Shown here: piece after piece, positions 29,445 to 56,236 of the stretch
Position numbering within the stretch: position 1 is the stretch's first letter
How the letters are laid out: every line of letters starts with the position of its first letter
DNA from: Thermodesulfobacteriota bacterium
Lineage (GTDB): Bacteria > Desulfobacterota > Desulfarculia > JACQYL01
Length of the DNA stretch: 64,000 nucleotides
NCBI GenBank assembly: GCA_963675595.2
Contig: CAXXLZ010000002.1
Span: 1,472,001 to 1,536,000 of the forward strand
Direction of reading: 5' to 3'
Notes under the pieces: generated by a model
Database searches by the model: none
Seen by the model: only the letters and a program-made list of their open reading frames with translations
Told to the model about the DNA's origin: nothing
Program-made: the position numbers and the translations under genes

Positions 29445-29687
29445 CTATTCCACGGGAATTTCTTCGCCCTTTGCCCTGTCGGGCCATTCTATTTCCAACA
29501 AGCCTTTCTCCACAAACCGGACCTTGATATCGCTTTTTTCAACCCCTTTGCCGATATAGAGTCGTAATAGGTGAGAATCGGCAGTTCGGGTATGTTTCAC
29601 CTTAAAAGGTCTTGGTCCCAGAAATGCTCCCACTCCGAAAGGACCTATTCTGATATCAAACAAATCGTCCCAGTCATCATATTTCAT
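29445..29687 (-). CDS. Small Hsp20/alpha-crystallin-like protein (80 aa, shortened domain)
   Basis: GVEKSDIKVRFVEKGLLEI resembles sHSP PGV.K.DI.V....L.I; C-terminal IPV (IxI/V) motif; GGGAG SD before ATG 29687. Confidence 0.55.
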   Translation of the reverse strand: MKYDDWDDLFDIRIGPFGVGAFLGPRPFKVKHTRTADSHLLRLYIGKGVEKSDIKVRFVEKGLLEIEWPDRAKGEEIPVE

Positions 29688-30016
29688 GCGATCTCTCCCA
29701 AGAAATAGCTTAAACATATATCGGTTACCTCTTTCCACGCAGTCTGCCATTACTATATAAACAAGTCAATTTATTCCTAATTAAGAGACTATTGGGCGTT
29801 TCCGGAACTTCTTTCTCCGTTTTCAACATGACTCAAACCGAATAGATGAGCAGGATGGTTTATTGGATGCCTGAAAGGACGTATACAGAGCTCACTTTGC
29901 TTCCTCTGCGTCAATACGTGGAGCCCCTCGTTGACTCCGAAGGGAAAAATTGCTAACCCGTGCGTGCGGACGGCCCGAAACCGCTTACCATTTCGAAATG
30001 CGAAGGAGATTCGGCT

Positions 30017-30718
30017 GTGAAGGACTTTCAGGTCAAAAAGATGTTCGAAAACATAGCCTTCTCCTACGATCTCCAGAACAGTGTCCTATCTCTGGGCCGG
30101 GACATTCACTGGAGGCGGGTTCTGTCGAAATCAACGCACCTCGGAAGAGGTGGGAGGATACTCGATCTGGCCACAGGGACCTGCGAGGTGGCCATGGACA
30201 TTTGTAGGCGCCATCCGCGGGCACGGGTCGTGGGGGTGGATTTTTCACCCGGCATGTTGGCCATCGGCAGGAAAAAGGTGGAGTCCGGGGGCCTGCAAGC
30301 GAGGATTCTTCTGCTGCTCGGTGACGGACGCCGACTGCCGCTCCGGGATGCCTCATTCGATTGCGTGACCATGGCCTTCGGCATTCGCAACATCGAAAAC
30401 CGCCGCTCCGTGCTCGACGAGATGCATCGCGTCCTGAAGGAGAACGGCCGGCTCCTCATCATGGAGTTCGATTATCCCGAACCCTCCTTCCTGAAGCGTC
30501 TCTACAGCCTGTACTTTCATCATGTTCTGCCTCCGCTGGGGAATTGGCTTTCGCGGACCGACTACGCTTATACTTATCTCGTCGAATCCATCCGCGGCTT
30601 TCCCTCGGAAGAGGGATTTCGGAATGAAATCGCCGAGGCCGGCTTTGAACGCGTTGAAAGTCGGAGCTTGACCTTCGGTATTGCCAAAATTTACAGCGCA
30701 ACCAAGAAATCGGTGTAG
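30017..30718 (+). CDS. ubiE: UbiE/MenG-family quinone C-methyltransferase
   Basis: VKKMFENIAFSYDLQNSVLSLG...WRR, LDLATGT, MAFGIRN, AYTYLVESIRGFP, LTFGIA. GTG follows AAGGAG. Confidence 0.85.
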   Translation: MKDFQVKKMFENIAFSYDLQNSVLSLGRDIHWRRVLSKSTHLGRGGRILDLATGTCEVAMDICRRHPRARVVGVDFSPGMLAIGRKKVESGGLQARILLLLGDGRRLPLRDASFDCVTMAFGIRNIENRRSVLDEMHRVLKENGRLLIMEFDYPEPSFLKRLYSLYFHHVLPPLGNWLSRTDYAYTYLVESIRGFPSEEGFRNEIAEAGFERVESRSLTFGIAKIYSATKKSV

Positions 30719-30724
30719 AAGCTT

Positions 30725-31318
30725 ATGGAAGTCAACTGGCCGGAACGAGTTTGGGTGAACAGCCCGGTACGCAAATTCGTGCAGATGAGGGAGGTAGCCT
30801 GGTTCAAAAGGACGCGCCCTCTGAAGCCGGGCGGTACGGTTCTGGAAATCGGATGCGGATGCGGCACGGGTGCCCGCATGGTTTGGACGACTTTTGCTCC
30901 TAAACGGATCGAAGCCATCGATATCGATCCGGAAATGATCAAACTGGCCCTGCGAAAGTATCCCCCCTCAGACAGGAACCCCATCCGTTTCTCGGTGGCC
31001 GACGCGCAGGAACTCCCTCACGAAAACGCCTCTTTCCAAGCCGTTTTCAATTTCGGAATCATACATCATCTGGAGGACTGGAGGCGTGGAATCGGAGAAA
31101 TCGCCCGCGTCCTGGTCAAGGGCGGCGCCTTCTATTTCGAAGAAATCTACCCTCCCCTTTACGCCAATCGCCTGTTCCGACGCCTGCTGGCGCACCCCAC
31201 GAAAGACCGCTTCCACGGCCCCGAGTTCCGTGCCGCCTTGGCGAATGTGGGATTGAGGCTCATTCCTTCGTACAGGGAAAGCCGTTTCGGCATTCTAGGG
31301 ATCGCGGAAAAGGAATAA
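30725..31318 (+). CDS. Class I SAM-dependent methyltransferase
   Basis: VLEIGCGCG motif I, DAQELP, FGIIHH, EIARVLVKGG. Confidence 0.88.
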   Translation: MEVNWPERVWVNSPVRKFVQMREVAWFKRTRPLKPGGTVLEIGCGCGTGARMVWTTFAPKRIEAIDIDPEMIKLALRKYPPSDRNPIRFSVADAQELPHENASFQAVFNFGIIHHLEDWRRGIGEIARVLVKGGAFYFEEIYPPLYANRLFRRLLAHPTKDRFHGPEFRAALANVGLRLIPSYRESRFGILGIAEKE

Positions 31319-31325
31319 ACGTTCA

Positions 31326-31383
31326 ACAGGCTGGTACGGAGCGCGATCCGCGGCGTACTCCACGCACACCTCATTCCTTGCGA
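31326..31383 (+). repeat. Repeat family A (MITE/REPIN-like), truncated copy
   Basis: ACAGGCTGG...CGCGATCCGCGGCGTACTCCA...CCTCATTCCT aligns with the revcomp of 39147-39297 and 46645-46766. Confidence 0.7.
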
Positions 31384-31410
31384 CCGGATTTTGTCGCTGT
31401 TCACAGGGTA

Positions 31411-31463
31411 GGTGGTGAAACCTTTTGGAAAAGGTTTCACCAGCCCCCTTCCAAAACTTCCTG
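31411..31463 (-). repeat. Repeat family B (REP-like), partial reverse copy with 14-bp hairpin
   Basis: TGGTGAAACCTTTT-GG-AAAAGGTTTCACCA (31413-31442) followed by GCCCCCTTCCAAAACTT. Confidence 0.65.
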
Positions 31464-31583
31464 AGCTGGTTGCTCGCTTCCGCGTCGCAACCGGGGTGAG
31501 GGGTTCTTGGGAGACCGATTGCCGGACGTATTAGGGTATTAGGAACGGAGCCTTCGACAAAGGCGTCCGAGTCCGGAAATCCA

Positions 31584-31680
31584 CTCACCGCATGGAGCCC
31601 TTCCGCCGGAGGCGGTGAGGCCTAGTTGAAATTTTTGAGGGGGGGTACCGGGGGGGAACTTTTTAAAAAGTTCCCCCCCG
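31584..31680 (+). repeat. Repeat family B copy ending in a perfect 32-bp palindrome
   Basis: CTCACCGC...GCGGTGAG stem, then CGGGGGGGAACTTTTTAAAAAGTTCCCCCCCG (31649-31680). Confidence 0.8.
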
Positions 31681-31756
31681 TGAATGCTTACCGGATTTTT
31701 TCACGGGCCGGCGGGGAAAGACGGACAAGGGGCATCTTCGAGGACGGTGTAGGGGT

Positions 31757-33492
31757 TCAGAGCCGACCCCGGCGAAAGATGGAAAGAATCAACCAAAGTC
31801 CCAGGACCGAAGCGATGACGTACCCGGCAACGCCCAGGACGGAGGTTAGAGACAGCGTTTGATCGCCCAAAAAACCGACTTTGAATTCAAGGACCTTTTC
31901 GGAGGAATTCAGAATCAGAGCGCCCCCGATTACGGAAGCGCAAATAATCATGCCCACCGTGAGTCGATTGACCCCTTTTTCGATCTGCGCGTCCAGACCG
32001 CCGAATCCCCCATGGACAAGCTCAACGCGCTGCTTCCCTTCGGCCGTCTTTCTGAGAATCTCATGCACGAACTTCGGCACGGCTTTGACGTGGCCGCCCA
32101 TGTCCAGCGCCTCCCGGCGCATCCTTGCGAAGGCTTTCTTGGGATCGCGCTCACGCTCGATCAGTCGGATCGCGTAGGGCCGAGTCACTTCGAGAATGCT
32201 CGCGTCACTTTTCAATATCTTGCCGAGCGCTTCCGTCTGCATAAACGTCTTCAGGAGCAGCAGGAGGTTCCTCGGAAGGCGAACGCGATATTTCAGAACG
32301 AGCCGCATAATCTGCTCGTACATATCCTTGAACGAAATATTACTCAATGATCTACCATAGAAAATCTCGCTCATTTCAATCAAATCACGTCTAAACTTAC
32401 CGCCTGCCGTCAGTTCTTCATTGATGATTCCGGAGTTCAGGAGTGAGTCCATTACAAGATCATAGTCATGTTCCGCATAGCCCAGGAAGAGATTCGCGAT
32501 CTGCTCCATGGCATGCTCATCCAGGTATCCCGTAATGCCGAAATCCACCAGGGAAACTCGTCCGTCACGCATTATAAGCGTATTCCCAGGGTGAGGATCC
32601 GCGTGAAAGAATCCAAACTCCATTAGTTGCTTGGAAAAAGACCGCAAACCAATCAATGCAATCTCTTTGGATCGATGCCGAGAGACACGATTTCGTCGAC
32701 GCGATCCATTTTGACGCCGTCGATATGCTCCATTACGAGGACCGACTTGGTTGTATATTCCCAGTAGACCTTTGGAATATAGATCTCACTGCTTCGCCTG
32801 AAGTTCTTTCTGAATTTTTCTATGCTTCCTCCCTCGATAAACATATCGAGTTCTTTTTGAATCACGCGTTCAAATTCTTTCACCAAGTCTACAAGGCCGA
32901 TAATACGGGCCATTTCAAACTTCTTCTCTAATTTCACGGCCAAATGGTACATCAACCGAATGTCTTCCCGTATTTTCCGATCAATGCCGGGGCGAATGAT
33001 CTTTACGGCCACTCGTTCCTTATTCGGGGTTTCGGCCAAGTGGACCTGAGCCACGGAGGCCGCAGCCAAAGGTTCGGGACTGAAATCCGAAAAAACCTCG
33101 AGAAGGGGCCGTCCCCACTGGGCCTCGATCAGATTTCTGATATCGGCGAATGGGGCGGGAGGGACCCGGTCCTGGAGTTTCTCGAATTCCTCGATATATT
33201 CGGGAGGGAAAATGTCCGCCCGGGTGCTCATCAGTTGCCCCAATTTGACGAAGGTGGGACCCAGTTCCTGAAGAGCCATCCGGATTCTTCTTGGGGTGGG
33301 AAATCCGCGGCCGGGTCGACCATTGTCGTCACCGGCCCGTTTGCCGTTCTTCGCTTTTCTCAGAAACCGGTCGGTCAGGCCTCCGAAACCGTGTTTCATC
33401 ACGAGCACCGAGATGGCTCCGGCCCTTCGCAAAGGTATCCGGCCGTAGGGACCCCATAGAGGCTTCAATATCTTCTCCCCGGCGGAGGACAA
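31757..33492 (-). pseudogene. ubiB: UbiB/AarF (ABC1) atypical kinase, single-base frameshift at about 32667
   Basis: LGPTFVKLGQ, AAASVAQVH, VAVKI in the 5' ORF; FFHADPHPGN, VDFG in the 3' ORF. One extra A in CCAAAGAG restores GIDPKEIALIGLRS. Confidence 0.85.
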
Positions 33493-33902
33493 GCCCGGAC
33501 GAGCGCCCCCGCGGGCTCACCGACGATTGATGGACGGGAAGTCATCGAGCTGTCTCCTCGAAAACTACCGTATAAGGCTTCCTGCAACGAAATAGCGGCA
33601 CGATAAGAATACGCTTCAACAGGTTGCTTGTAAAGGTGGAGTTTGTCGATCCTATGGTGATGCTTCGAAATGAATGTTAAGACCATCTACATTGTTTGGG
33701 GTATTTTGATTGGAAAAGCACCTTTTTTCTTTTCATCAAGCTCACGATGTATTGATCCGATTTGATTCCCCGGCTCCAATAATATATTATTCCATACAGC
33801 TATATTATTATCTTTTTCTCTCCGGTTTCCAAAGAGAAAATACGATCATGGATATCGTTTCCGGAGATGTCCCCCTGCAAGGATTGAGGTGTCGTCATTA
33901 TT

Positions 33903-34853
33903 ATGGAAAACCCCGACGTTTTGCTTGATCGCAGAGAACCGGCGGGGCTGTCCCGCCTGAAGCTTCTCTTGGCGCTTTCCAGAACACCGCACCTGCTTCT
34001 GGATCTGGCGACACCGGCCGTTGCGGCGCTCTTTTGGCTGCAGGCTTTCCCTCCGGCCCACGTCGTCATTTTGGGACTCATCACCGCATTCGCGGGATAC
34101 ACGACCGTATACGCTCTGAATGATCTCGTGGACCTGCGAACGGATCGAGAAAAACTCCGGCAGGGAGGATTCCAGGGAACCGAAAACTACTTGGACGCGG
34201 CCATCGTCAGACATCCTATGGCGCAAGGACTCTTGAGCTTTCGTGAAGGCGTCTTATGGGCGGCCGGATGGGCGGGCGTGTGCCTCACCTGCGCCTACCT
34301 GTTGAATCCGGTCTGCATCCTCTTTTTCCTCGCGGGCGCGGTTCTCGAGGTCGTCTATTGCCTCCTGTGGCGAATCAGCCCTTTCCGAACCCTGATGAGC
34401 GGTGCGGTGAAAACCTGCGGCGCCGTTGCCGCCGTCTACGCGGTGGATCCCAATCCTTCTTTTCCCTATGTGCTTACGCTTTTTGCCTGGCTTTTCTTCT
34501 GGGAGATCGGCGGCCAGAACATTCCCAACGACTGGGCCGAGCTCGAGGAAGACACGCGTTTCAATGCCAAAACCGTTTTGGTTCGTTTCGGTCCCCAATG
34601 GGCCGCCATGATCACCTTCGCCTGTTTGTCGGTTGCGGTCTTCATACATATGATATTGCCGTTTTCGGCGACGCGGCATGTTCCCCTAACATACATATCG
34701 GCATCCGTCTTAGTAGGCATTTATTTATTATTGCTCCCCTCATTCCGCCTGCTTCGCACCAAAGATCGTTCCGACGCCTTGACCCTATTCAGGAAATCAA
34801 GCTATTACCCCCTATCATTATTAATCACATTGGCAATTACCATAATCATATAA
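33903..34853 (+). CDS. UbiA-superfamily membrane prenyltransferase
   Basis: NDLVDLRTD Asp-rich motif, RHPMAQG, second motif NDWAELEED, about 8-9 TM segments. Confidence 0.88.
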   Translation: MENPDVLLDRREPAGLSRLKLLLALSRTPHLLLDLATPAVAALFWLQAFPPAHVVILGLITAFAGYTTVYALNDLVDLRTDREKLRQGGFQGTENYLDAAIVRHPMAQGLLSFREGVLWAAGWAGVCLTCAYLLNPVCILFFLAGAVLEVVYCLLWRISPFRTLMSGAVKTCGAVAAVYAVDPNPSFPYVLTLFAWLFFWEIGGQNIPNDWAELEEDTRFNAKTVLVRFGPQWAAMITFACLSVAVFIHMILPFSATRHVPLTYISASVLVGIYLLLLPSFRLLRTKDRSDALTLFRKSSYYPLSLLITLAITIII

Positions 34854-35002
34854 ACTGCCGTTAACCGGCAGCCCCTGTTCCGACCCATGAGACTCAACAC
34901 AGAGGCACCAACTATGCTTTCCTGATAGTCCTTTGGAGGGAATTCCTTCGCCGATTCAGGAGATGCAGGGAACGCTGGAAATCACCGAAGAAACCTATTT
35001 CT

Positions 35003-35088
35003 CCCTCAGCCGCTCCGCCGAAGACGGTGAGGCCTGCTTGAAGCTTTACAAGGGGGGCGCACGGTGGGAATCTTTTTAGAACTTCCCT
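35003..35088 (+). repeat. Repeat family B copy
   Basis: CCTCAGCCGCTCCGCCGAAGACGGTGAGGCC...AGCTTT..AAGGGGGG...GGGAA...TTCCC aligns with 31584-31680 and 36539-36622. Confidence 0.7.
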
Positions 35089-35142
35089 GGTGAACGCGTA
35101 CCCGAAATCTCTGTTTACATCCAACATGAAGAGTTCTTGCGA

Positions 35143-36267
35143 ATGAGATTCAACAGCTTTCTGCTCTACCGAGACATCATTCTGACTCCTCGTTTTCTCT
35201 CGTGCCTGTGGCGGACAAGAAAAAACATCATTACGGACCGGAAAGGTCTGCCGCCTCAGTGGGGACCGTTCATGGCCGAATTGGACGTGACCTACCGATG
35301 TGATTGCCGTTGTCGCATGTGCCGACGCTGGACGGATGGTCGTCGTGGAGAAATGACCCTCCCCGAATATGAACGGCTCGCAGCGGTTTTCGACCGAATG
35401 GGAGTGCAACTCGTGAGCATCGCCGGGGGCGAGCCTTTGACCCGCAAGGATATTCACGAACTCATCGGTTGCTTCGCGAAATACGGCATGTCCGTCAACC
35501 TGTGCACCAACGGGTTGTCTCTGGAAAAACATGCGCAAGCCCTGTCACGAAGCGGTGCTTCCTGCGTTACCGTGAGCGTCGACGGGGCGGAAGCGACGAC
35601 TCACGATATGATTCGGGGCGTTCAAGGTTCCCACGAAAAAACCGAAAACGGAATCCGGGCGTTGGCGGCTTTTCCTCGCAGCAGCAGGCCTCTAATTCGT
35701 GTAAGAATGACCGTGTCCGATCACAATGCGCGTGAGGTGAAATCCTATTATGAAAAGTGGCGCCGCAGAGTCGACGACGTGTTGCTTCAGCCCACGCACT
35801 ACTGCACCGGGGCTTTCTACACCGGAGAAGACGAGAAGACCTTCGGATTCGATACGGAAGAGCTCGCACGCCAGATATCCGGAACCCCCTTTGAAAGAGA
35901 TCGGTACCTGACGACTCTGATTCAAAGTCTGAAAGAAAACGGCGGTTATCCGAAACAACGCTGTTACGCGGGAACACTCATGGTTCGCATCGATCCTTGG
36001 GGGAATGTCTACCCTTGCCTGGAACAACGCGTACGTGTCGGATCGGTGCGAGAGGAGAGTTTTCCGACCGTCTGGCAATCCGACTACTTCAACCGCGTCC
36101 GCAAAGACATAGCAACCGCCGATGATTGCAGGTGCTGGTACAACAACACGGCCATGATCAGCCACTATGCCGGACACCTCCGTCGCACCACAGTCCTCCC
36201 CTTTCGACCCGTTTCGGCTCTTCCCATCGATTCGGGGATGGACGTTCGGCGCATCCCCGGCCGGTGA
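35143..36267 (+). CDS. Radical SAM protein with SPASM/Twitch domain
   Basis: CDCRCRMC (CxxxCxxC), GGEP, TNG, SVDG; C-terminal RCYAG...IDPWGNVYPC...CRCW. Confidence 0.9.
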   Translation: MRFNSFLLYRDIILTPRFLSCLWRTRKNIITDRKGLPPQWGPFMAELDVTYRCDCRCRMCRRWTDGRRGEMTLPEYERLAAVFDRMGVQLVSIAGGEPLTRKDIHELIGCFAKYGMSVNLCTNGLSLEKHAQALSRSGASCVTVSVDGAEATTHDMIRGVQGSHEKTENGIRALAAFPRSSRPLIRVRMTVSDHNAREVKSYYEKWRRRVDDVLLQPTHYCTGAFYTGEDEKTFGFDTEELARQISGTPFERDRYLTTLIQSLKENGGYPKQRCYAGTLMVRIDPWGNVYPCLEQRVRVGSVREESFPTVWQSDYFNRVRKDIATADDCRCWYNNTAMISHYAGHLRRTTVLPFRPVSALPIDSGMDVRRIPGR

Positions 36268-36693: not shown

Positions 36694-38040
36694 ATGGAAG
36701 TCCTGTTTGATCCGGTCATGCTGTCCAGGCTTCAGTTCGCCTTTACGGCCATGTTTCATATCATCTGGCCGGTCCTCACCATAGGCTTGAGCCTGTTTAT
36801 CGTGTTCATGGAAACGATGTGGGTCAAAACCGGGAATGAAGTCTACTATCGACACGCCCGGTTCTGGACCCGGTTGTTTATCTTGAACTTCGCCGTGGGC
36901 GTGCTTTCCGGCATCCCCATGGAATTTCAGTTCGGAACCAACTGGAGCGTTTTTTCACGAGCCGGCGGGGATATTTTCGGGCATCTACTGGGATTCGAGG
37001 CCACCACGGCGTTCATGCTTGAGGCGGCCTTTCTCGGGATCATGGTATGGGGATGGAAGAGAGTCTCACCAAAGGTGCATCTGTTCTCCGCTTCCATGGT
37101 CGCCTTCGGCTCCTCCCTCTCCGCCTTTTGGATCATGACGGCCAACGCCTGGATGCAAACGCCTTCGGGAGGCGATTTTCTGAACGGCCGCTTCATTGCG
37201 ACGAGCAACCTGGGGGCCATTCTGAATCCCGATATGCCTTGGGCGGTTTCGCATATGTGGGTGGCCTGCCTGGAAGTAAGCGTTTTCGTGGTGGGCGCGG
37301 TTAGCGCCTACTATCTGCTGAAGGGGCGTCAGGTGGACTTCTTCCTGAAGTCATTCAAGGTCGTCCTGGTGGCCGCAATTGTCATTACGCCGCTACAAAT
37401 CTATTTGGGCGACGGCTCCGGCCAAGAGGTCGCGAAAACCCAACCCACAAAACTGGGCGCCATGGAAGCACACTGGGAAACGAACCCGGAAGGTGAAGGT
37501 GCTTCGTGGAACTTCCTCGCCTGGCCGAATCAGGCCGAACAGAAAAATGATTGGGCTATTTCCGTGCCCAATGCCCTGAGCATGGTGGTCACGCGAACCT
37601 TCACCGGCCGGGTTCGGGGATTGCGCGAGTTTCCTCCGGAAGACCAGCCCCCTATCTGGCTGCCGTTCTATTGCTTCCGAATCATGATCGGTCTGGGATT
37701 CCTCTTCTTCTTCCTCATGCTTTGGACTCTATGGGCTTGGCGCAAGGGAAAACTGAAACCGGCGGTCGTTGCATCCCAAAAGAAGCTCCTGTTTGCATGG
37801 ATTGCGGCCATGCCCTTGAGCTATGTGGCTGTGGAAGCGGGGTGGGTGACACGGGAAGTGGGACGCCAACCCTGGATCATCTATGGAGTGCTGCGAACGA
37901 ACGAGGGCGTCAGTCCCATCCAGGCATACTCGGTGGGGGGTTCCCTGCTCGTCATCGCGGGGCTCTATCTCGTGTTGTTTATCGCCTTCCTGATCTTTGC
38001 CTCCTTTCTTGTCCATAAAGGACCGGAAGCCATAGAATAA
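36694..38040 (+). CDS. cydA: Cytochrome bd quinol oxidase subunit I (short Q-loop, CioA-like)
   Basis: SRLQFAFTAMFH, EFQFGTNW, QPTKLGAMEAHW, FRIM, REVGRQPW. Confidence 0.95.
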   Translation: MEVLFDPVMLSRLQFAFTAMFHIIWPVLTIGLSLFIVFMETMWVKTGNEVYYRHARFWTRLFILNFAVGVLSGIPMEFQFGTNWSVFSRAGGDIFGHLLGFEATTAFMLEAAFLGIMVWGWKRVSPKVHLFSASMVAFGSSLSAFWIMTANAWMQTPSGGDFLNGRFIATSNLGAILNPDMPWAVSHMWVACLEVSVFVVGAVSAYYLLKGRQVDFFLKSFKVVLVAAIVITPLQIYLGDGSGQEVAKTQPTKLGAMEAHWETNPEGEGASWNFLAWPNQAEQKNDWAISVPNALSMVVTRTFTGRVRGLREFPPEDQPPIWLPFYCFRIMIGLGFLFFFLMLWTLWAWRKGKLKPAVVASQKKLLFAWIAAMPLSYVAVEAGWVTREVGRQPWIIYGVLRTNEGVSPIQAYSVGGSLLVIAGLYLVLFIAFLIFASFLVHKGPEAIE

Positions 38041-38065: not shown

Positions 38066-39073
38066 ATGCTTATGGAAAATCCACTTACTTTGATATGGCT
38101 GTCGATCATAGGATTCTTTCTGTTATATTACGTAATAAACGATGGTTCCGGACTCGGTGTCGGCATACTCTGCTTATTTTCGGGCAGGTATGAAGACCAA
38201 AGAGCAATGATGGAAAGTGTGGGCTACGTCTGGCATACGAACCAGACCTGGTTGGTCATCGTCGGCGGCCTGTTGTTCGGAGCTTTTCCCCTCTGCTACA
38301 GTATTTTGTTCTCAGCCCTCTATATACCCGCGATGTTCATGCTCGTCGGCCTGATCCTCAGAGGCGTGGCCGTTGATTTCCATGAACATTCCCGGAGCGG
38401 GCGTTTTTGGGCCAAGCTTTTCGGACTGGGAAGTCTATGGACCGCGGTGACGCAAGGCCTGTTGGCCGGCGGACTTCTTTCCGGGATTGCCGTTAAGGAC
38501 GGGCAGTTTGCGGGCGGCATGTGGGACTGGTTCAATCCGTTATCCATATTCATCGCCGTCGGCGTGGTACCGGCCTACCTGATGCTGGGCTCCAACTATC
38601 TCATCAAAAAGACGGAGGGCGATCTTCAACAACGGGTTTTCCGCTGGTCCCGAATCAGTTCGGCAACGACATTGCTGATATCGTTGGTCGCATTTCTGTG
38701 GATCAACGCAAAATATCCCTATGCTTCCGCCAAATGGTCCACGCCTCGGGAATCATCCTATGTCGTGTACGGCGCCGTTGCGACCGCACTGGGGTTTGCC
38801 ATGCTGTTCCGAAGCCTTTGGAAAAAACGGGAGCGCGGTCCTCTGTTCTGGAACGCCGTTGTAGCGACTTTCGGGTTCGTGACCTTGGGCATGAACCTGT
38901 ATCCGAACATGATTCCACATGTCGTCTCTCCCGTCACGGCGGCCGAGGCGTCCGCCTCGCCCCGCACGTTGATCTTCATGCTCGTGGTCACGGGCATCCT
39001 CATTCCCGTCCTGGTATTCTACACCTCGTACACGCACCGGGTCTTCAGAGGGAAAGTCAAAGCCGAAGAGTAG
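38066..39073 (+). CDS. cydB: Cytochrome bd quinol oxidase subunit II
   Basis: DG..LGVG, W..NQTWLV..GG.LFGAFP..Y, LILRGVA, VFRGKV; directly downstream of cydA. Confidence 0.93.
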   Translation: MLMENPLTLIWLSIIGFFLLYYVINDGSGLGVGILCLFSGRYEDQRAMMESVGYVWHTNQTWLVIVGGLLFGAFPLCYSILFSALYIPAMFMLVGLILRGVAVDFHEHSRSGRFWAKLFGLGSLWTAVTQGLLAGGLLSGIAVKDGQFAGGMWDWFNPLSIFIAVGVVPAYLMLGSNYLIKKTEGDLQQRVFRWSRISSATTLLISLVAFLWINAKYPYASAKWSTPRESSYVVYGAVATALGFAMLFRSLWKKRERGPLFWNAVVATFGFVTLGMNLYPNMIPHVVSPVTAAEASASPRTLIFMLVVTGILIPVLVFYTSYTHRVFRGKVKAEE

Positions 39074-39146: not shown

Positions 39147-39297
39147 GACCCGTTGAAAACGGCCGGTTGCTACAGGTTGGCGAAAAACGATGAGATGCAA
39201 GGCGCGCAAATCCCGAGGAACGAGGCGTACATGGAGTACGTCGCAGTGACGAGGGATGAAGCGCAACGAAGCGGATCGCGTTTTTCGCCGGCCTGTC
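39147..39297 (-). repeat. Repeat family A, full-length copy (about 150 bp)
   Basis: Arms ACAGGTTGGCGAAAAACG / CGTTTTTCGCCGGCCTGT; internal hairpin CGTAC-N5-GTACG; abuts the nuoN stop codon. Confidence 0.85.
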
Positions 39298-40717
39298 AGG
39301 CCACGAGGGCCTTTGCCGCCGACAGGGCCAGAGAATAGAGGAAGTCCGGATAGAATCCCCCCACGACGATCACCGTTAGAATCGCCAGGATCATCACTTT
39401 GGTGGGAAAAGAAAGGCGAATGGCCGGCAGGGACTCCTCGGGCTCGCTAAAGTAGGCCGCTTTCACCACGAGCACATAGTAGTAGAGTGAGATGAGCACG
39501 TTGATCATGCCGATCAAAACGAGGGAGAAGTAACCCTTTTCCATGGCCGCCGTGAAAACCAGGAACTTGCCGGTGAAACCGATGGTGGGTGGGAGGCCCC
39601 CCAGGCTGAACACGCCCGCCATCATGGAAACGGCCAGTATGGGAGAGCGACGGTGCAGCCCCGCCAGTTCGACGACCTCCAAGTTTCCCCCTTGATCGGC
39701 CACTTTCACCAGCACCAGGAAGCAGATGAAATTCATGGTCAGATAGGCCGCCGCATAAAAAATGGCCGCCGCAAACCCGTTCTCGCTCATACAGAGAATT
39801 CCAATGAGCACATACCCTGCGTGAGCCACTGCGGAATAGGCCAGAAGACGTTTCAAATCTTTTTGGACAACGGCCGCCAGGTTGCCGAGAGTCATTGAAA
39901 CCACGGCCAGCACCACCAGCAGATGAACGAAGTACGTGCTTTCCGCACCCAGGGTTGCGAACCTGAGCACCAGGGCGATGGCCCCGGCCTTTGTGGCCGT
40001 GGCGATATAGGCCGTCACCTGATTCGCCGCCCCTTCGTACACGTTGGGCGCCCAGAAATGGAAAGGAAAGAGAGCCAGCTTGAAAAAGAATCCGGATAGA
40101 GTCAGCACCAGGCCCACCATCAGCATGGGCGAATGGGCGTTGGTGGAAACGGCGTTGAGGATGGCCGGCAGGTTGGTTTCTCCGCAGGCTCCATAGATCG
40201 AGGCCATGCCGAAAAGCGTCACGGCCGACGCTGCGGCCCCGAGGAGGAAGTACTTGATGCCCGCCTCGAAATGCCGCCCCTCGCCTCTTCTCAAAGCCAC
40301 CAGAATGTAGAGGGAATAACTGCTCAATTCCAGGGCGATGTAGATGGTGAGCAACTCGACGCTGCTTACCAGCATCATCATGCCGAGGGTGCAAACGGAG
40401 AGGAGCAAATAGAACTCCGGCCGGCGTTTCGGCTCGATGCCGGGCAGCTCGGGACAGATACAGATGACCAGGAAATAGCCCATGGCCAAAAATGCTTTGA
40501 ACACCTGTGAAAATAGATCGACTCGGTAGATGGTGGAAAAAGATCCTTGTAAGCAGCCGCAGGCCGTACTCACCACGACCGCCCCCAGGGCCAGACCCAG
40601 CGCCGTGAGGTAGAGACCGTCCTGCTTGGCTTCGGGTCTTGCCGTCATTCCGAACGTGAAAAACACGGCGGCCATGAAGCAGAAATAGAGTTCGGGCGCA
40701 ATAAGCATCCAGGTCAT
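39296..40717 (-). CDS. nuoN: NADH:quinone oxidoreductase subunit N
   Basis: ALELSS, EAGIKYFLLG, FKLALFPFHFWAPNVYEGA, KRLLAYS; last gene of the nuo operon. Confidence 0.93.
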   Translation of the reverse strand: MTWMLIAPELYFCFMAAVFFTFGMTARPEAKQDGLYLTALGLALGAVVVSTACGCLQGSFSTIYRVDLFSQVFKAFLAMGYFLVICICPELPGIEPKRRPEFYLLLSVCTLGMMMLVSSVELLTIYIALELSSYSLYILVALRRGEGRHFEAGIKYFLLGAAASAVTLFGMASIYGACGETNLPAILNAVSTNAHSPMLMVGLVLTLSGFFFKLALFPFHFWAPNVYEGAANQVTAYIATATKAGAIALVLRFATLGAESTYFVHLLVVLAVVSMTLGNLAAVVQKDLKRLLAYSAVAHAGYVLIGILCMSENGFAAAIFYAAAYLTMNFICFLVLVKVADQGGNLEVVELAGLHRRSPILAVSMMAGVFSLGGLPPTIGFTGKFLVFTAAMEKGYFSLVLIGMINVLISLYYYVLVVKAAYFSEPEESLPAIRLSFPTKVMILAILTVIVVGGFYPDFLYSLALSAAKALVA

Positions 40718-42195
40718 TTCGGCAAACCCTCCATAAAAGCGAATACGGACGGTTGAATCACATCCAGCATCAGCGAAGGGAAAAACCCGAACAGGACCAA
40801 AGTCGCAATCAAGACCATTCTGGGAAAACCCAGGGCCGGCGACACGTCGGGCAGGCCGGCGAAACGCTGATTCTTTTCGCCGTAAAAAGTCTTCTGCACC
40901 ACCCGAAGCATGAACAGGGCGCTGATCACGAGCGCTGAGACGGCCGCCACCCCGCTCACCGGGTAGACCTTGAACGCGGAGAGGATCACGGTCAGTTCGG
41001 CCCAGAAGTTGGCGAAGCCCGGAACCCCCATACCGGCGAAAGCCCCCACGATGAAGTAGGCGGAAGCCACGGGCATGATTCGGCTCATCCCCCCGAGTTC
41101 GGGTATGGATTTCGTATCCGTCTTATCGTGCAGATACCCCACCGAGGAAAAAAGCAGGGCCGTCATGATGCCGTGGGCAAACATCTGGTACACGGCCCCG
41201 GTCAGACCCTGCGCCGTGACCGTGGCCAAGCCGAGCCCGACGATGCCCATATGGGAGACGCTGGAATACGCCACCACGTACTTGAGGTCCGTCTGGGTCA
41301 AACCGACCAGAACTCCATAAACGATTCCGATGGTGGCCAGGACGGCCATCCAGGGAGCCCAGTATTGCCAGCCCTCGGGGCAAAGAAAGATGGCGACTCG
41401 CAGCACGCCGAAAGCTCCCAGCTTCATCAGCACGCCGGCATGAAGCATGCTCACCGAGGTGGGTGCGGCCACGTGACCGGAAGGAGACCAGGTATGGAAA
41501 GGCCAGACGCCCGCCAAAATGCCGAAGCCCAGGTAGAGGAACAGGAATGCGAATTTCTGCTGAAAAGGGCTGAAGGTTCCCGGTTGCATCATGCCGAACA
41601 AATCAAATCCGACCCCTCCCGACTGCACGAAAAGATAGATCATGGCCGGGAGAATGAGCGCACTTCCGGCAAGGAGATAGAGGAAGAGCTTCATGGCCCC
41701 GTATTCCTTGCGGGTGGAGCCCCAGATCACAATGAGCGGATACATGGGAAAGAGAGAAACGTCGTACCAAACGAACAGGAAAAACAGGTCCATGCTCATG
41801 AAGAAGCCGAACACTCCGGTGACGAGGACGAAGTATAAGGCGAAGAATTCCTTAACCCGCTCCTCCAACTCCCACATGGTCAGCACTCCGGTGAAATGAA
41901 CGATTCCGGTGAGCAGCAGGAGAGGAAGATTGAATCCGTCGACAGCGTTGAAATAATGAATCCCCAAGGATTTCATCCACACGATCTTTTCCACGAACTG
42001 GAGGCCCCCTTGGGTCCTGTCGTAGGCCGCGAAGAGGAAAATGCCGAGGATCAGGGACAGACCGGAAGAAAAGGCGCTCACCCAACGGATCAGGCCCTTT
42101 TGTCGCCCGGGGATCACCAGGATGGCTACCAGTCCCAGGATGCAACTGAGCATGATGGCGGACAGAAAGGGAAAATCGGAAAGCGTTGGATTCAT
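40714..42195 (-). CDS. nuoM: NADH:quinone oxidoreductase subunit M
   Basis: PFHTW...HVAAPT..SMLHAGVLMKLG, AYSSVSHMG, QMFAHG. Confidence 0.93.
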   Translation of the reverse strand: MNPTLSDFPFLSAIMLSCILGLVAILVIPGRQKGLIRWVSAFSSGLSLILGIFLFAAYDRTQGGLQFVEKIVWMKSLGIHYFNAVDGFNLPLLLLTGIVHFTGVLTMWELEERVKEFFALYFVLVTGVFGFFMSMDLFFLFVWYDVSLFPMYPLIVIWGSTRKEYGAMKLFLYLLAGSALILPAMIYLFVQSGGVGFDLFGMMQPGTFSPFQQKFAFLFLYLGFGILAGVWPFHTWSPSGHVAAPTSVSMLHAGVLMKLGAFGVLRVAIFLCPEGWQYWAPWMAVLATIGIVYGVLVGLTQTDLKYVVAYSSVSHMGIVGLGLATVTAQGLTGAVYQMFAHGIMTALLFSSVGYLHDKTDTKSIPELGGMSRIMPVASAYFIVGAFAGMGVPGFANFWAELTVILSAFKVYPVSGVAAVSALVISALFMLRVVQKTFYGEKNQRFAGLPDVSPALGFPRMVLIATLVLFGFFPSLMLDVIQPSVFAFMEGLPK

Positions 42196-42279
42196 AAGTC
42201 GATCATTCCATTCGTGTCGATCCGTCGAACAAGGCTTCCCGCAGAAGCGGGCCGGAGGCGCTCCAACCGAAGCGACGGA

Positions 42280-44142
42280 TTAGAGCAGGAAAAAATAAAG
42301 GCCCATCAATACGACGACGAGTAACATTACCATCAGGTTGAGGCGCAGGAGCCCCGACTGTATGTAGGAGCATATCCTGCCGCTTCCCACCGCCAAGCGA
42401 GCGATCCCTTCAATCCCTCCGTCGATGACCCGCTGGTCGTTCTGTGTAAAAGACCGTGCAAGCAATCGATAGACCACCTGTTTCAACAGGAAGGCATAGA
42501 GGTCATCCAGGAACCAGCGCCTCAGGAAGAAGGTTTTCAACGGCCGGATTCGTTCCACGAAACCCATTTGCGGAGCGGTTCGGCGGCCGAACTCGAACCA
42601 TGTCAGGAAAACTCCCAGGAAGGCCACGGAGACGCTCACCGGGGTGAGCCAAGCGTGTTCCCCGGGCGGGGCCATGCCGAGGAAACTCTCAAGGGAGCGC
42701 TCAAACCAGCCGATCCCCAGGGTCAAACCCGCGAGCACCAGCAGTGGCAAAGCCATGGCCAGGTAGGGTGCTCCTCCCCGATGCTCCTCGTCTTGAGGAT
42801 CCAGGTTTCGAGGGAAGAGAATAATGAAGACCGGTCGAAAGGCGTAGTAGGCCGTCATAAACACGCCCAACAGGGCGGCGGCGAACCAGATCGGATCGGG
42901 ACGGTCGAGCAACGACGCCAAGATCGTTTCCTTGCTGAAAAAACCCGCGAGAGGAGGCAATCCCGAGAGGCTCGCCGCGGCCAGAACGGTGCACACGAGA
43001 GGAGTCTTCAAGCTCCGACCGTTCTTCCGGGCGATCTCATACATATCGTTGGTTTCGAAGTAGTGGATCCAAACCCCGGAACACAGGAACAGGAGGGCCT
43101 TGAAAAGCGCATGGGTGGTCAGGTGAAAATAGCCCGCGAAGGAACTACCCGCCGCAAGCCCCATGACCATGTATCCCAGTTGACTGATGGTGGAGTAGGC
43201 CCAGACTTTCTTGATGTCCCTGTCCACCATGGCCATGGTGCTTGCCATGAGCATGCTGATCGTGCCCACCGTGAGGCAGACCGTCATGGCGGTCTCGGAA
43301 CGGCTGAAGAAAGGAAAAAGTCGTACGAAAAGGAAGACACCGGCCGCAACCATGGTGGCCGAGTGCAGTAACGCGCTGACCGGAGTGGGCCCTTCCATGG
43401 CGTCCGGAAGCCAGGTCATGAGAGGAAACTGCGCGCTCTTCCCGATGATCCCGCCGAACACGAGCAACACGCAAAGAGTCAGGAAGCCCGGAGAGAGACG
43501 GGCCGCTGTCGACGCATCGTTCAGCTCCATGATGCTCAAGTCGCCCAAGTGCACCAGTAGGAGGAGAACGCCCACGAAGAAGGAAGCGTCCCCAAGACGG
43601 GTCATGACGAACGCCTTTTTCCCGGCCTGCGTGGCGCTGAAACGCTCATACCAGAATCCGATGAGCAGGTACGAGCACAGGCCCACGACTTCCCAGAAGA
43701 TGTAGAGCTGCAGCAGGGAAGTGGACACGGCGAGAGAAAGCATGGCCCAGGCGAAGAGAGACTGAAACGCATAGTAACGGGAAAAACCGGGATCGCCCTC
43801 CATGTAACCCAGGGAATAGACCTGTACCAGAAGGCAGATCACGGCCACCAGGGAGAACATGAGCAGACTCGACGGATCCAGCAGGAACCCGAAAAACAGA
43901 GAAAAATCGTGGCCGCCGTACCAAAGGGTGGAATATTCCAGGGGTTTCTCCAGGGGCCACAATCGGAAAAGAAGCGAAAGGGCGGAGAGCATGGAGATGC
44001 TCACCGCACTAATGGACAGACCGGCCGACAAACGAGGATGGGCTCTCGTGAACAGGGTGATCACCACGAATGAAGCGAAAGGCATCCCCAAGGTGATGGC
44101 CGTGGCCGCGAAACCGAACTCTTTGAGCAAAGGAGAAATCAT
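42280..44142 (-). CDS. nuoL: NADH:quinone oxidoreductase subunit L
   Basis: WEVVGLCSYLLIGFW, GKSAQFPLMTWLPDAMEGPTPVSALLHSATMV. Start reassigned to ATG 44142. Confidence 0.94.
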   Translation of the reverse strand: MISPLLKEFGFAATAITLGMPFASFVVITLFTRAHPRLSAGLSISAVSISMLSALSLLFRLWPLEKPLEYSTLWYGGHDFSLFFGFLLDPSSLLMFSLVAVICLLVQVYSLGYMEGDPGFSRYYAFQSLFAWAMLSLAVSTSLLQLYIFWEVVGLCSYLLIGFWYERFSATQAGKKAFVMTRLGDASFFVGVLLLLVHLGDLSIMELNDASTAARLSPGFLTLCVLLVFGGIIGKSAQFPLMTWLPDAMEGPTPVSALLHSATMVAAGVFLFVRLFPFFSRSETAMTVCLTVGTISMLMASTMAMVDRDIKKVWAYSTISQLGYMVMGLAAGSSFAGYFHLTTHALFKALLFLCSGVWIHYFETNDMYEIARKNGRSLKTPLVCTVLAAASLSGLPPLAGFFSKETILASLLDRPDPIWFAAALLGVFMTAYYAFRPVFIILFPRNLDPQDEEHRGGAPYLAMALPLLVLAGLTLGIGWFERSLESFLGMAPPGEHAWLTPVSVSVAFLGVFLTWFEFGRRTAPQMGFVERIRPLKTFFLRRWFLDDLYAFLLKQVVYRLLARSFTQNDQRVIDGGIEGIARLAVGSGRICSYIQSGLLRLNLMVMLLVVVLMGLYFFLL

Positions 44143-44150
44143 TTGGACGC

Positions 44151-44456
44151 TTACCGTCTCAAGAGGTTGTAGCGATCGGGATCGACGGAGCCGGTGACCC
44201 GGTGAGCCGCCACCACGAGGGCGAGCCCCACCGCCACTTCCGTGGCGGCGACCCCTAGAATGAAGAGAACGAAAGCCTGCCCGTCGAGTCGTCCCCAGTG
44301 CAGGGCCCCACCCACAAAGGCGATAGCCGCCGCGTTCATCATGATCTCGATGCCGATGAGGATCATGATCAGATTCCGTCTCGCCAAGACACACGCCAGA
44401 CCGATGAAAAAGACGGCCGCCGCAAGAATGAAAACGTGGCTGAAAGGAACGATCAT
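44151..44456 (-). CDS. nuoK: NADH:quinone oxidoreductase subunit K
   Basis: RRNLIMILIGIEIMMNAA, VAATEVAVGLAL. Confidence 0.93.
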   Translation of the reverse strand: MIVPFSHVFILAAAVFFIGLACVLARRNLIMILIGIEIMMNAAAIAFVGGALHWGRLDGQAFVLFILGVAATEVAVGLALVVAAHRVTGSVDPDRYNLLRR

Positions 44457-44989
44457 GATTCCGCTCCCGTCTTGGTTTCGGTCCCATTCCCCTTCGGAGT
44501 CCCCTTTATTCCCAACTGCACGGCCGCCAGGAGCCCCAGCAAAAGGAGCACGGAGATGATTTCCACCGCCAACCAGTAACGCTCGAAGACATATCGCCCG
44601 AACACCCTCGGCGCGACTGTGGCGGATTTCAGCACTTCCGCCCCGCCGGGTTCCCTCATGGCCGTTAAGGCCGCCAGAGCGACAAACAAAAGGCCGACCA
44701 CCAAGGGCGGAATCCAACGGCGCAGAGAGAGGCTCGCTTGATCGGCACTCTCCGCCTTGAGCATCATGACCACGAAAAGAAAAAGGATCATGACGGCGCC
44801 GGCGTATATGATGACTTCAAGGGCGGCAAGAAACGGAGCTCCCAGCAGAAAAAAGAGCATGGCGCTCCCCACGAAGGAGAAGATGAGATACACCACGGCG
44901 TGCACCGGGTTCCTGCGGGTCACCGCCAGCCCCGCGGACCCCAGGATAAGCGCCCCGAGCAGATAAAATATGGCCGCGTGCAGACTCAA
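44453..44989 (-). CDS. nuoJ: NADH:quinone oxidoreductase subunit J
   Basis: NPVHAVVYL, APFLAALEVIIYAGAVMILFLFVVMML. Confidence 0.93.
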   Translation of the reverse strand: MSLHAAIFYLLGALILGSAGLAVTRRNPVHAVVYLIFSFVGSAMLFFLLGAPFLAALEVIIYAGAVMILFLFVVMMLKAESADQASLSLRRWIPPLVVGLLFVALAALTAMREPGGAEVLKSATVAPRVFGRYVFERYWLAVEIISVLLLLGLLAAVQLGIKGTPKGNGTETKTGAES

Positions 44990-45003
44990 GCTCCACTCTC
45001 CCC

Positions 45004-45600: not shown

Positions 45601-45633
45601 GTGCGAAGTCCCGGCTGCCGCCTTCCGCGGCCG

Positions 45634-46626: not shown

Positions 46627-46644
46627 CACGCAAGACCCTTCACC

Positions 46645-49246: not shown

Positions 49247-49252
49247 GGGATT

Positions 49253-51051: not shown

Positions 51052-51061
51052 AACCCACTTC

Positions 51062-56194: not shown

Positions 56195-56211
56195 AGGGTT
56201 TGAAGACACGC

Positions 56212-56232: not shown

Positions 56233-56236
56233 TGTT

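Follow-up and report, generated by a model that had tools for sequence, protein, structure and literature searches.

Several pathways for the synthesis of prenylated quinones and related lipids have gene sets that resemble the locus described here. The nearest of those described is the methyl-plastoquinone (mPQ) gene set of the Nitrospirota, which comprises ubiA-family, ubiE-like and ubiB-like genes (MpqA, MpqB, MpqE and others; Elling et al., 2025, PMC11874023); the mPQ cluster of Leptospirillum also includes a cobalamin-binding radical S-adenosylmethionine (SAM) methyltransferase (PMC11874023). A 2026 survey that covered 26,264 bacterial genomes found the Desulfobacterota to be mostly menaquinone producers and reports ubiquinone within this phylum solely from the class GWC2-55-46, with the canonical ubi genes (ubiA-X), the ubiTUV genes and the O2-independent UbiT/U/V route; it also states that further quinones may await discovery (PMC13386864). 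In the ebo system, EboD or Ino1 (inositol-phosphate synthase) together with EboE are reported to give a cyclitol-derived ring for the UbiA-like EboC (bioRxiv 10.64898/2026.05.21.724671), and according to another 2026 preprint UbiB supports ATP-dependent decarboxylation in ubiquinone synthesis. The present work concerns a stretch of 64,000 nucleotides (referred to as the window) from a Thermodesulfobacteriota bacterium (Desulfobacterota; Desulfarculia; JACQYL01; contig CAXXLZ010000002.1, positions 1,472,001 to 1,536,000), in which genes for a UbiE-type methyltransferase, a second methyltransferase (MT2), a UbiB protein, a divergent UbiA-superfamily prenyltransferase (UbiA-X) and a radical SAM protein are found beside the cydAB and nuo genes.

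The best explanation of this locus is that it represents a widespread accessory module, occurring mostly in the Desulfobacterota and built around UbiA-X, in a form specific to its lineage. Our tentative interpretation, whose chances we place a little short of even, is that this conserved and apparently undescribed module, distinct from the genes for canonical menaquinone synthesis, would produce a membrane lipid, as yet undescribed, of a prenylated and methylated quinone-like kind that is tied to oxygen-reducing respiration. The proteins of the window were identified from a listing of open reading frames (ORFs) and from scans with the Pfam and NCBIfam profiles, and the locus and its surroundings are made up as follows.

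29445..29750, minus strand: small conserved ORF (101 amino acids), upstream of and divergent from the UbiE gene, function unassigned
29960..30718, plus strand: UbiE/MenG-family C-methyltransferase (PF01209, TIGR01934, NF001244)
30725..31318, plus strand: MT2, class I SAM methyltransferase of 197 amino acids (Methyltransf_11/25 domains)
31757..33492, minus strand: UbiB/ABC1 atypical kinase-like gene (PF03109 on both halves)
33903..34853, plus strand: UbiA-X, divergent UbiA-superfamily prenyltransferase of 316 residues (PF01040, 90.5 bits; cut-off 34.2)
35143..36267, plus strand: radical SAM protein of 374 residues with an apparently partial SPASM/twitch-like C-terminus (PF04055, PF13186)
36694..38040, plus strand: cydA, cytochrome bd oxidase (PF01654, 533 bits)
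38066..39073, plus strand: cydB, cytochrome bd oxidase (PF02322, 260 bits)
39296..53823, minus strand: complete nuo operon (A, fused BCD, E, F, G, H, I, J, K, L, M and N), convergent with cydAB

UbiA-X belongs to the UbiA superfamily by its PF01040 match, its two Asp-rich motifs and the helical UbiA fold of its predicted model. Both motifs (NDLVDLRTD and NDWAELEED) are conserved, and in an alignment of 14 members of the family the patterns NDxxDxxxD and NDWxExEED are common to all. In comparison with E. coli UbiA and the MqnP of this genome, the loop after the first Asp-rich motif contains an insertion of about 14 residues, which precedes a conserved R-H-P-x-A-Q-G and is present in all 14 of the aligned proteins; the unusual insertion that an initial annotation of this DNA had noted at this place is confirmed. 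The AlphaFold2 model (predicted local distance difference test score, pLDDT, 84.3), in which the insertion loop is of low confidence, has a template modelling (TM) score of 0.76 to both ApUbiA (4od4) and the digeranylgeranylglyceryl phosphate (DGGGP) synthase 6m31, and the sole match in a sequence search of the PDB was AfUbiA (4tq3; E 0.005). The placement of UbiA-X within the superfamily rests on hidden Markov model (HMM) scores, which fall below every NCBIfam equivalog cut-off. The best match was to TIGR01475 (65.8 vs a cut-off of 180.8), the scores for UbiA (TIGR01474, 43.4 vs 275), MqnP (NF041584, 22.7 vs 420) and CyoE/CtaB (TIGR01473, 24.3 vs 210) were lower still, and no MenA model was among the NCBIfam matches listed. 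The weak best matches are of the UbiA/MqnP type of aromatic-acid prenyltransferases, and these scores uphold the earlier view that the protein is not an ordinary MqnP, MenA or UbiA.

The best 120 homologues listed for UbiA-X are 54–69% identical to it and mostly 298–333 residues in length, and among species-representative genomes at least 545 of 590 pattern-matched stretches encode a relative. Of 251 genomes sampled evenly across the phylum Desulfobacterota, 25 have UbiA-X (E ≤ 1e-40), which is an accessory gene of patchy distribution. Its carriers include the cultured strains Desulfosarcina widdelii PP31 and NaphS2 (loci L065 and L020, respectively). Eighty loci centred on UbiA-X (median length 14.3 kb, many of the contigs being short), which derive almost all from Desulfobacterales, Syntrophobacterales, Desulfatiglandales or records named 'delta proteobacterium', were compared by calling and clustering their ORFs and annotating the representatives; partners were counted by tblastn with a coverage of at least 50%, giving the following frequencies.

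DUF2231 membrane protein fused to a cytochrome b5 or c domain: 48/80
UbiE: 34/80
Class II fumarase: 22/80
MT2: 19/80
Xylose-isomerase-like TIM barrel: 10/80
UbiG-like methyltransferase (TIGR01983, 255.8 bits; cut-off 103): 6/80
Myo-inositol-phosphate-synthase-like (MIPS-like) cyclase: 6/80
ActB similar to that of alternative complex III (ACIII): 5/80
CcoN of the cbb3 oxidase: 4/80
UbiB: 3/80
Radical SAM gene: 3/80
cydA: 3/80

A DUF2231 or methyltransferase partner was present in 63 of these loci, which also neighbour genes of the tricarboxylic acid (TCA) cycle. At the level of whole genomes, DUF2231 (PF09990) was detected in 21 of the 25 that contain UbiA-X vs 43 of the other 226; the related genomes in this comparison are not independent, and the positives span at least nine families. 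In loci L033 and L077, the genes for the MIPS-like cyclase, the TIM barrel, the UbiG-like protein and UbiE form one co-directional run facing UbiA-X, which in L033 also holds cydAB. The gene order in genome G206 is cydBA, TIM barrel, dehydroquinate synthase-like (DHQS-like) cyclase, UbiG-like gene, UbiA-X, UbiB and cbb3 genes. The association of UbiA-X with UbiE and MT2, and sometimes with cydAB, cbb3/ACIII and UbiB, recurs in many other genomes, and neither of two results that the initial annotation had named as damaging to its proposal, viz. a grouping of the UbiA with ordinary enzymes and a lack of co-occurrence elsewhere, was obtained. Four loci (L033, L077, L084 and L195) combine a UbiG-like gene with a xylose-isomerase-like TIM barrel and a MIPS-like or DHQS-like cyclase, some with cydAB in the run, and these neighbourhoods suggest that a quinone-like ring is made from sugar phosphate. 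In seven others (L088, L097, L047, L044, L079, L069 and L197) UbiA-X adjoins ACIII-like genes (molybdopterin/FeS ActB-like and NrfD-like), and in several of these it is also beside cbb3 genes (COX1, FixO) and a copper P-type ATPase.

The arrangement seen in the window is retained as a whole in G256, a genome from another genus of the same family. The small ORF, UbiE, MT2, UbiB (inverted and intact), UbiA-X, the radical SAM gene, cydA and cydB are found there in the same order and orientation, with nuoN and nuoM following cydB on the opposite strand, and the proteins are 67–86% identical to those of the window. The small ORF, for which the Pfam scan gave no match, is 74% identical to its counterpart in this locus. 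The metagenome locus L099 also matches the arrangement over its reach, cydAB included. In a genome of the same order (G258) MT2, DUF2231 and UbiA-X are present, and in one of the same class (G059) UbiA-X is found with MT2 and UbiE about 6 kb away and with neither DUF2231 nor the radical SAM gene; UbiA-X is followed in the latter by genes for a transketolase, a HAD hydrolase and 6-phosphogluconate dehydrogenase. The synteny with both cydAB and nuo that the initial annotation had proposed to look for exists. However, adjacency of nuo to the module was observed within the family only, and its suggested role as a partner of the module is unsupported. The nuo operon itself is complete from A to N, as had been claimed, and nuoB, nuoC and nuoD form a single ORF of 804 amino acids (51062-53476, minus strand; Oxidored_q6, Complex1_30kDa and Complex1_49kDa).

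All five of the gene types that had been described as lying before cydAB are present close to where they were placed, but they do not constitute a single co-directional set. UbiE and MT2 are separated by a spacer of 6 nucleotides (nt) and, given this spacing, are probably co-transcribed. UbiB is encoded on the minus strand, converging with MT2 and diverging from UbiA-X. The gap between UbiA-X and the radical SAM gene is 289 nt, that between the latter and cydA is 426 nt, and UbiA-X is likewise set apart from UbiB, the gaps before UbiA-X, the radical SAM gene and cydA being about 290–430 nt. Because of the inversion of UbiB and the gaps of 289 and 426 nt, the five genes are not one operon.

The genome that contains the window (6.79 Mb in three contigs, 98% complete) has its own genes for menaquinone. 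An inventory of men, mqn and ubi genes revealed the futalosine pathway, with two PF02621 genes (MqnA/D) and a tight locus at C2:3.51 Mb consisting of a MenG paralogue, MqnL (TIGR03701, 640.9 bits) and MqnP (TIGR01475, 320.9 bits). MqnL is one of three UbiD-family genes in the genome, and the UbiA family has four members, viz. MqnP, a MenA-like gene (TIGR00751, 108.2 vs a cut-off of 102.15), an IspH-UbiA fusion and UbiA-X. The UbiE and UbiA-X of the window are extra to this apparently complete late menaquinone gene set, and five other genomes with UbiA-X each also possess MqnP- or MenA-like genes. The canonical ubiquinone route is absent. Genome-wide, the best UbiG score was 49.2 bits vs a cut-off of 102.95 and the best score for a UbiH/F/I-type hydroxylase was 27.1 bits vs 224.65; Peptidase_U32 (UbiU/V) was not found, and Coq7 was found neither in this genome nor in eight relatives. 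The absence of any known ubiquinone ring hydroxylase, which had been noted for the window, therefore holds for the whole of this nearly complete genome, and because such a hydroxylase and UbiG are both lacking, the known route to ubiquinone cannot be the one by which any quinone is made here.

Two further frames in this genome may be recorded here. The IspH-UbiA fusion (G000:C2:3924587-3926350, plus strand) has 587 residues, with an N-terminal half that is IspH (LytB)-like by eye and a weak C-terminal PF01040 match of 44 bits; frames of 579-652 amino acids with weak PF01040 matches in G251, G252, G254 and G255 are comparable to it in length. A frame of 766 amino acids (G000:C2:3932127-3934427, plus strand), which has a cytochrome b5-like segment and, by eye, many CxxCH motifs, is the sole match in the genome to the N-terminal domain of the DUF2231 partner.

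The UbiE of the window is a member of the UbiE/MenG/COQ5 family, with scores above the cut-offs of PF01209 (202.1 vs 20.1), TIGR01934 (245.8 vs 158.35) and NF001244 (234.2 vs 216), but its score of 205.8 with the MpqE model NF052510 is below the cut-off of 335 and places it outside MpqE. Its translation may in fact begin at a GTG or ATG within the frame given above. The MenG paralogue beside MqnL and MqnP passes the subfamily model only, whereas the window protein passes the UbiE/MenG equivalog cut-off, and either of the two could be the housekeeping MenG of this genome. A quick tree of UbiE proteins with support from the Shimodaira–Hasegawa-like approximate likelihood ratio test (SH-aLRT), in which E. 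coli UbiE is the sole outside reference and several branches are long, shows paralogue groups and not function. In this tree, the UbiE from the window branched with those from L099, L019, L040 and L088, with the second UbiE of G251 and G254 as the sister group of this clade. The UbiA-X-neighbouring UbiE proteins of most Desulfobacterales fell into another, large clade, which also contained the UbiE of G252 and that of G253, neither genome having a further copy. G255, too, has one UbiE, whose gene adjoins UbiA-X. MT2 reached no NCBIfam equivalog cut-off, and a PDB sequence search with it gave generic class I methyltransferases only.

UbiB appears in the window as two ORFs (32653-33492 and 31757-32656) that are related by a shift of 1 nt and overlap by 4 nt. 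They cover positions 1-171 and 176-242 of PF03109, align end to end with the L099 protein (residues 1-270 and 272-570), and score 257.5 and 133.2 bits with TIGR01982, whose cut-off of 487.55 cannot be judged on split halves. In L099, L063, G206 and G256 the orthologue is a single ORF. The region 32300-33000 was compared with Logan contigs from four runs (X1, X3, X6 and X8), of which X8 does not reach the site. An extra G behind plus-strand position 32668 is seen in X6 (depth 8.7) and in X1 (depth 15.8), which is near-identical and may be the source sample; X3 (a related strain with seven substitutions) has an extra C behind 32664. The insertion of either base restores a single frame, as expected of UbiB/ABC1 proteins, which are continuous chains of about 550 residues. 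The gene is best read as intact, the split being ascribed to an error or variant of a single base where the assembly has a short homopolymer near 32668; that UbiB is a pseudogene is ruled out by the intact frame in the run contigs and the orthologues. The three-contig assembly may hold further homopolymer indels, a candidate being the overlapping ORFs 12483-13919 and 13783-15678, which encode a response regulator with four PAS domains and then PAS-HisKA-HATPase-REC.

This UbiB is the only copy in the genome. The initial annotation had taken it as a signal of a ubiquinone- or plastoquinone-type pathway, a view that fails because PF03109 was detected (E ≤ 1e-20) in 120 of the 251 genomes of a phylum reported to consist mostly of menaquinone producers (PMC13386864). 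UbiB is therefore not diagnostic, and its use as a marker of a non-menaquinone quinone is ruled out.

The radical SAM protein is placed in this superfamily by PF04055 (67.2 bits) and by a CX3CX2C motif that is invariant in all 13 aligned members of its family, which also share a conserved N-terminal helix region of 45 residues. The Pfam scan matched Radical_SAM, SPASM and Fer4_12 only, with a score of 36.4 bits for SPASM (PF13186, cut-off 21.5). SPASM domains have a seven-cysteine motif that binds two auxiliary clusters. The C-terminal part here has five invariant or near-invariant cysteines, viz. a lone Cys, a C-x12-G-x4-C element and a C-x-C pair, and from its sequence it looks like a partial SPASM or twitch domain. 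Identity with AhbD (103.6 vs a cut-off of 500), MftC (90.9 vs 265), BlsE (67.9 vs 400) or PqqE (75 vs 381) was rejected on these scores, as was identity with HpnH or MoaA, for which the scores were also far under the NCBIfam cut-offs. The class C menaquinone methyltransferases MenK/MqnK are HemN-like radical SAM proteins with a HemN_C domain; no HemN-type model was among the best 25 of the 53 NCBIfam families that the protein matched, which places it outside MenK/MqnK. The best fold match of its AlphaFold2 model (pLDDT 83.9) was BlsE (7vob; TM 0.76, E 1e-15), followed by SkfB, MoaA, SuiB, DesII, PqqE and BtrN, and fold and Atlas searches retrieved generic radical SAM relatives only.

The radical SAM gene, found in just 2 of the 251 genomes of the phylum (seven candidates scored per genome) and in 2 of 21 close relatives, has been added to the module in particular lineages only and is mostly unlinked to UbiA-X. 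Among 80 metagenome loci centred on its family (including L104-L152), the usual upstream neighbour was a gene of the ComB-like 2-phosphosulfolactate-phosphatase family (30/80), UbiA-X was adjacent in only four (L099, L100, L120 and L134), and cydA was present in three. Where the gene accompanies UbiA-X it occupies the slot that is held elsewhere by DUF2231; in L100 the row is MT2, UbiA-X, DUF2231 and the radical SAM gene. The initial annotation had treated it as a regular member of the cluster, which these counts contradict, and its proposed action as an O2-independent ring enzyme is unsupported, the nearest fold being that of the decarboxylase BlsE. The radical SAM gene and the ComB-like phosphatase gene make up a pair without an assigned function. 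Five radical SAM loci have DAHP synthase and chorismate mutase/prephenate dehydratase genes nearby, and four of them also dehydroquinase II.

The substrate and product of the module, the parts played by the individual methyltransferases and the radical SAM protein, and the physiological partner would, in our proposal, be as follows. A hydroxylated aromatic head group would be given its polyprenyl chain by UbiA-X, its ring would be C-methylated by the UbiE-type enzyme, and MT2, in place of which a true UbiG-like enzyme is present in other genomes, would add a second methyl, probably on oxygen. With this product the organism would have, beside its futalosine-derived menaquinone, a second prenylated membrane lipid of a quinone- or quinol-like type. 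UbiB would serve as the usual accessory ATPase for prenyl-quinone intermediates, and the decarboxylation that it is reported to support would fit a pathway from a prenylated aromatic acid. The radical SAM protein, which has a BlsE/AhbD-like fold and in this family directly follows UbiA-X in the stead of DUF2231, may be a replacement for the latter; it may also supply or tailor the head group by decarboxylation-type chemistry, decarboxylate a prenylated acid, act on the lipid or its tail, or serve cytochrome bd. The presence of cydAB here, and of cydAB or cbb3/ACIII elsewhere, suggests use of the product in oxygen-reducing or oxygen-defence electron transport. The resemblance to a respiratory prenyl-quinone pathway derives from the combination of a prenyltransferase with C- and O-methyltransferases and sometimes UbiB, adjacent to oxygen reductases and TCA-cycle genes. 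If the ring is built from a cyclitol, the absence of hydroxylases would be accounted for, because such a ring would be already oxygenated. A more complete scheme, which we think improbable, is a hydroxylase-free, O2-independent Desulfobacterota route to a methoxy-methyl-polyprenyl benzoquinone resembling demethoxy-ubiquinone. In such a route the MIPS-/DHQS-like cyclase and the TIM-barrel protein, as a dehydratase, would build the oxygenated ring, UbiA-X would prenylate it, the UbiG-like protein or MT2 and UbiE would methylate it, and the DUF2231-haem protein, as its dedicated redox partner, would feed the bd and cbb3 oxidases; in the family of the window, the radical SAM protein (with its decarboxylase-type fold) and UbiB would replace the cyclitol and DUF2231 parts, with a head group from another aromatic precursor.

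A number of observations weigh against our interpretation, and some of them favour ordinary menaquinone housekeeping accompanied by bystander genes. According to this alternative, which is unlikely in our judgement but has to be taken seriously, the UbiE of the window is the working demethylmenaquinone methyltransferase, UbiB is a general accessory, and UbiA-X and MT2 make or modify a menaquinone variant, e.g. by alternative prenylation of the futalosine-pathway naphthoate or as an O-methylated or esterified derivative, with no new quinone class involved. The equivalog-level match of the window UbiE, in contrast to the subfamily-level match of the paralogue beside MqnL and MqnP, agrees with this view. 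Further, since a UbiE from the clade of UbiA-X neighbours is the sole UbiE in G252, G253 and G255, and in the last of these is beside UbiA-X, such an enzyme probably methylates menaquinone too, and the adjacency of UbiE and UbiA-X may in part reflect a tendency of quinone genes in general to cluster. The absence of hydroxylases is in keeping with a naphthoquinol head group, for which none is needed, the weak best matches of UbiA-X are to aromatic-acid prenyltransferases of the UbiA/MqnP type, and bd oxidases and ACIII are known to accept menaquinol. However, the genome already has MqnP and a MenA-like gene, the UbiG-like, cyclase and TIM-barrel genes beside UbiA-X elsewhere point to a benzenoid ring made de novo, and UbiA-X is present in just one-tenth of the sampled genomes of a mostly menaquinone-producing phylum. 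Other points against the interpretation that we prefer concern the window's own genome and family. DUF2231 is absent from the whole genome, orthologues of the cyclase and the TIM barrel were not found in it, and its best UbiG-like score is below the cut-off, so that there is no evident source of the head group or the ring oxygens. The spacing and strand switches speak against a single transcription unit; a consensus scan for promoter- and terminator-like sites gave counts no higher than the shuffled-sequence background and is uninformative on operon structure. UbiB is present in 16 of the 25 genomes with UbiA-X vs 104 of the 226 without it, the methyltransferases of the module occur in only 6 of the 80 radical SAM loci (L099, L100, L120, L134, L137 and L153), and the patchy presence of UbiA-X among close relatives (4/21) indicates that the module is dispensable.

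This patchy, accessory distribution is also compatible with a product that has no place in respiration, namely a prenylated, methylated aromatic or cyclitol-derived metabolite that acts as an antioxidant or signal in the manner of ebo, its proximity to oxidases reflecting oxygen defence or chance. We consider this rather unlikely. The MIPS-like or DHQS-like cyclases and xylose-isomerase-like TIM barrels of UbiA-X loci show the same alternation as that reported for EboD or Ino1 with EboE and EboC (bioRxiv 10.64898/2026.05.21.724671), and a Cu/Zn superoxide dismutase is encoded in the window, but EboB/EboF-type genes are not recurrent neighbours, no EboC-named NCBIfam model was matched, the partners UbiE, UbiG-like protein and UbiB are typical of respiratory quinone pathways, and the neighbouring genes are those of respiratory complexes and the TCA cycle. 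The initial annotation had itself favoured a quinone, possibly of higher potential, dedicated to electron transfer from complex I to cytochrome bd, with the radical SAM/SPASM protein carrying out an O2-independent ring step, be it a hydroxylation or another, and this version we regard as very improbable. It accords with the position of the radical SAM gene between UbiA-X and cydAB here, in G256 and in L099, with its linkage to UbiA-X, the UbiG-like gene or MT2 in L100, L120, L134, L137, L153, L031, L075 and L097, with its location in the usual slot of DUF2231 in a genome that lacks the latter, and with the lack of a known hydroxylase. Against this, its family is associated with the ComB-like phosphatase far more often than with UbiA-X, it is much rarer in the phylum than UbiA-X (2 vs 25 of 251 genomes), its nearest folds are of decarboxylase, dehydrogenase and peptide-maturase types (BlsE, SkfB, MoaA, DesII and BtrN), nuo is adjacent within the family only, and a redox potential is not inferable from sequence. 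We know of no radical SAM aromatic hydroxylase that could serve as a precedent.

Two other regions of the window also deserve mention. A DDE_Tnp_1 transposase (7158-8768, plus strand) is located between a protein of 1180 amino acids with PAS, GAF and HisKA domains and no ATPase domain (8798-12340, minus strand) and one of 280 amino acids with HATPase_c and REC domains (6155-6997, minus strand), and the region 6155-12340 looks like an insertion sequence that has split one large hybrid histidine kinase. Past the nuoA end of the operon (54386-63544) are genes for a GH15 glucoamylase-like protein, 6-phosphogluconate dehydrogenase, a transaldolase-PGI fusion (945 amino acids), glucose-6-phosphate dehydrogenase and the Cu/Zn superoxide dismutase.

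The module, which includes no known ring hydroxylase, is present beside oxygen reductases in hundreds of genomes of anaerobes, and cultured carriers exist. If it does make a second redox lipid, the respiration of oxygen and the defence against it in sulfate reducers and syntrophs would be seen differently, a new route would be added to the known quinone biosyntheses, and the use of quinones as chemotaxonomic and geochemical markers would be affected.

Literature searches retrieved no description of a UbiA-X/DUF2231/MT2 module, although the supplements of PMC13386864 and PMC11874023, which were outside their scope, may list such genes. They gave no paper on the combination of DUF2231 with cytochrome b5, only an unrelated database paper for DUF2231 alone, none on UbiA with myo-inositol-1-phosphate synthase, a xylose isomerase-like protein, a methyltransferase and quinone, and, for ubiquinone biosynthesis in Desulfobacterota, no description of the module in the titles and abstracts of the matches listed. 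Of the known systems, ebo, as described in its preprint, shares with UbiA-X of other genomes the DHQS-like or inositol-phosphate-synthase-like cyclase and the xylose-isomerase-like TIM barrel, and with them the manner in which a ring is made for prenylation, but EboA, EboB and EboF partners have methyltransferases, UbiB and DUF2231 in their place. Neither TatD-like (EboB) nor alkaline-phosphatase-family (EboF) genes formed a recurrent neighbour cluster of UbiA-X, NCBIfam was not checked for holding the EboC-named model that UbiA-X failed to match, and this genome has no cyclase or TIM-barrel orthologue; the locus does not qualify as an ebo cluster, whose core is eboB, eboC, eboE and eboF. The radical SAM protein is like BlsE, its best fold match, and AhbD, its best HMM match, in joining a radical SAM core to a C-terminal domain that is apparently for auxiliary clusters; it differs from both in its scores far under their cut-offs, its five conserved C-terminal cysteines, its N-terminal extension of 45 residues and its genomic context. 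The late steps of the futalosine pathway (MqnP, MqnL and MenG) provide another example of a UbiA-superfamily and UbiE-family pair in a menaquinone-producing anaerobe, but they have their own MenG-MqnL-MqnP locus elsewhere in this genome, and UbiA-X is set apart from MqnP by its score and its loop insertion of 14 residues. With the ubiquinone pathway the module has in common the logic of a prenyltransferase, a C-methyltransferase, an O-methyltransferase and UbiB, as well as the true UbiG-like genes that adjoin UbiA-X in some genomes; it is unlike that pathway in that this genome is without UbiG, UbiH/F/I, UbiU/V and Coq7, UbiA-X is far under the TIGR01474 cut-off, and the DUF2231, MT2 and cyclase/TIM-barrel partners are not ubi genes. 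The mPQ gene set differs from the module in that UbiA-X reaches no 4-hydroxybenzoate prenyltransferase model, the window UbiE is under the MpqE cut-off, the radical SAM protein appears to be of the SPASM/twitch type whereas that reported from Leptospirillum is a cobalamin-binding methyltransferase, no linkage to UbiC, PlqQ/MpqQ or UbiD/X was observed here, and the host retains a menaquinone pathway. As described for the Nitrospirota (PMC11874023), however, it similarly combines a UbiA-family prenyltransferase with UbiE-like and UbiB-like proteins outside the Pseudomonadota and Cyanobacteriota, and in Leptospirillum its cluster also includes a radical SAM gene.

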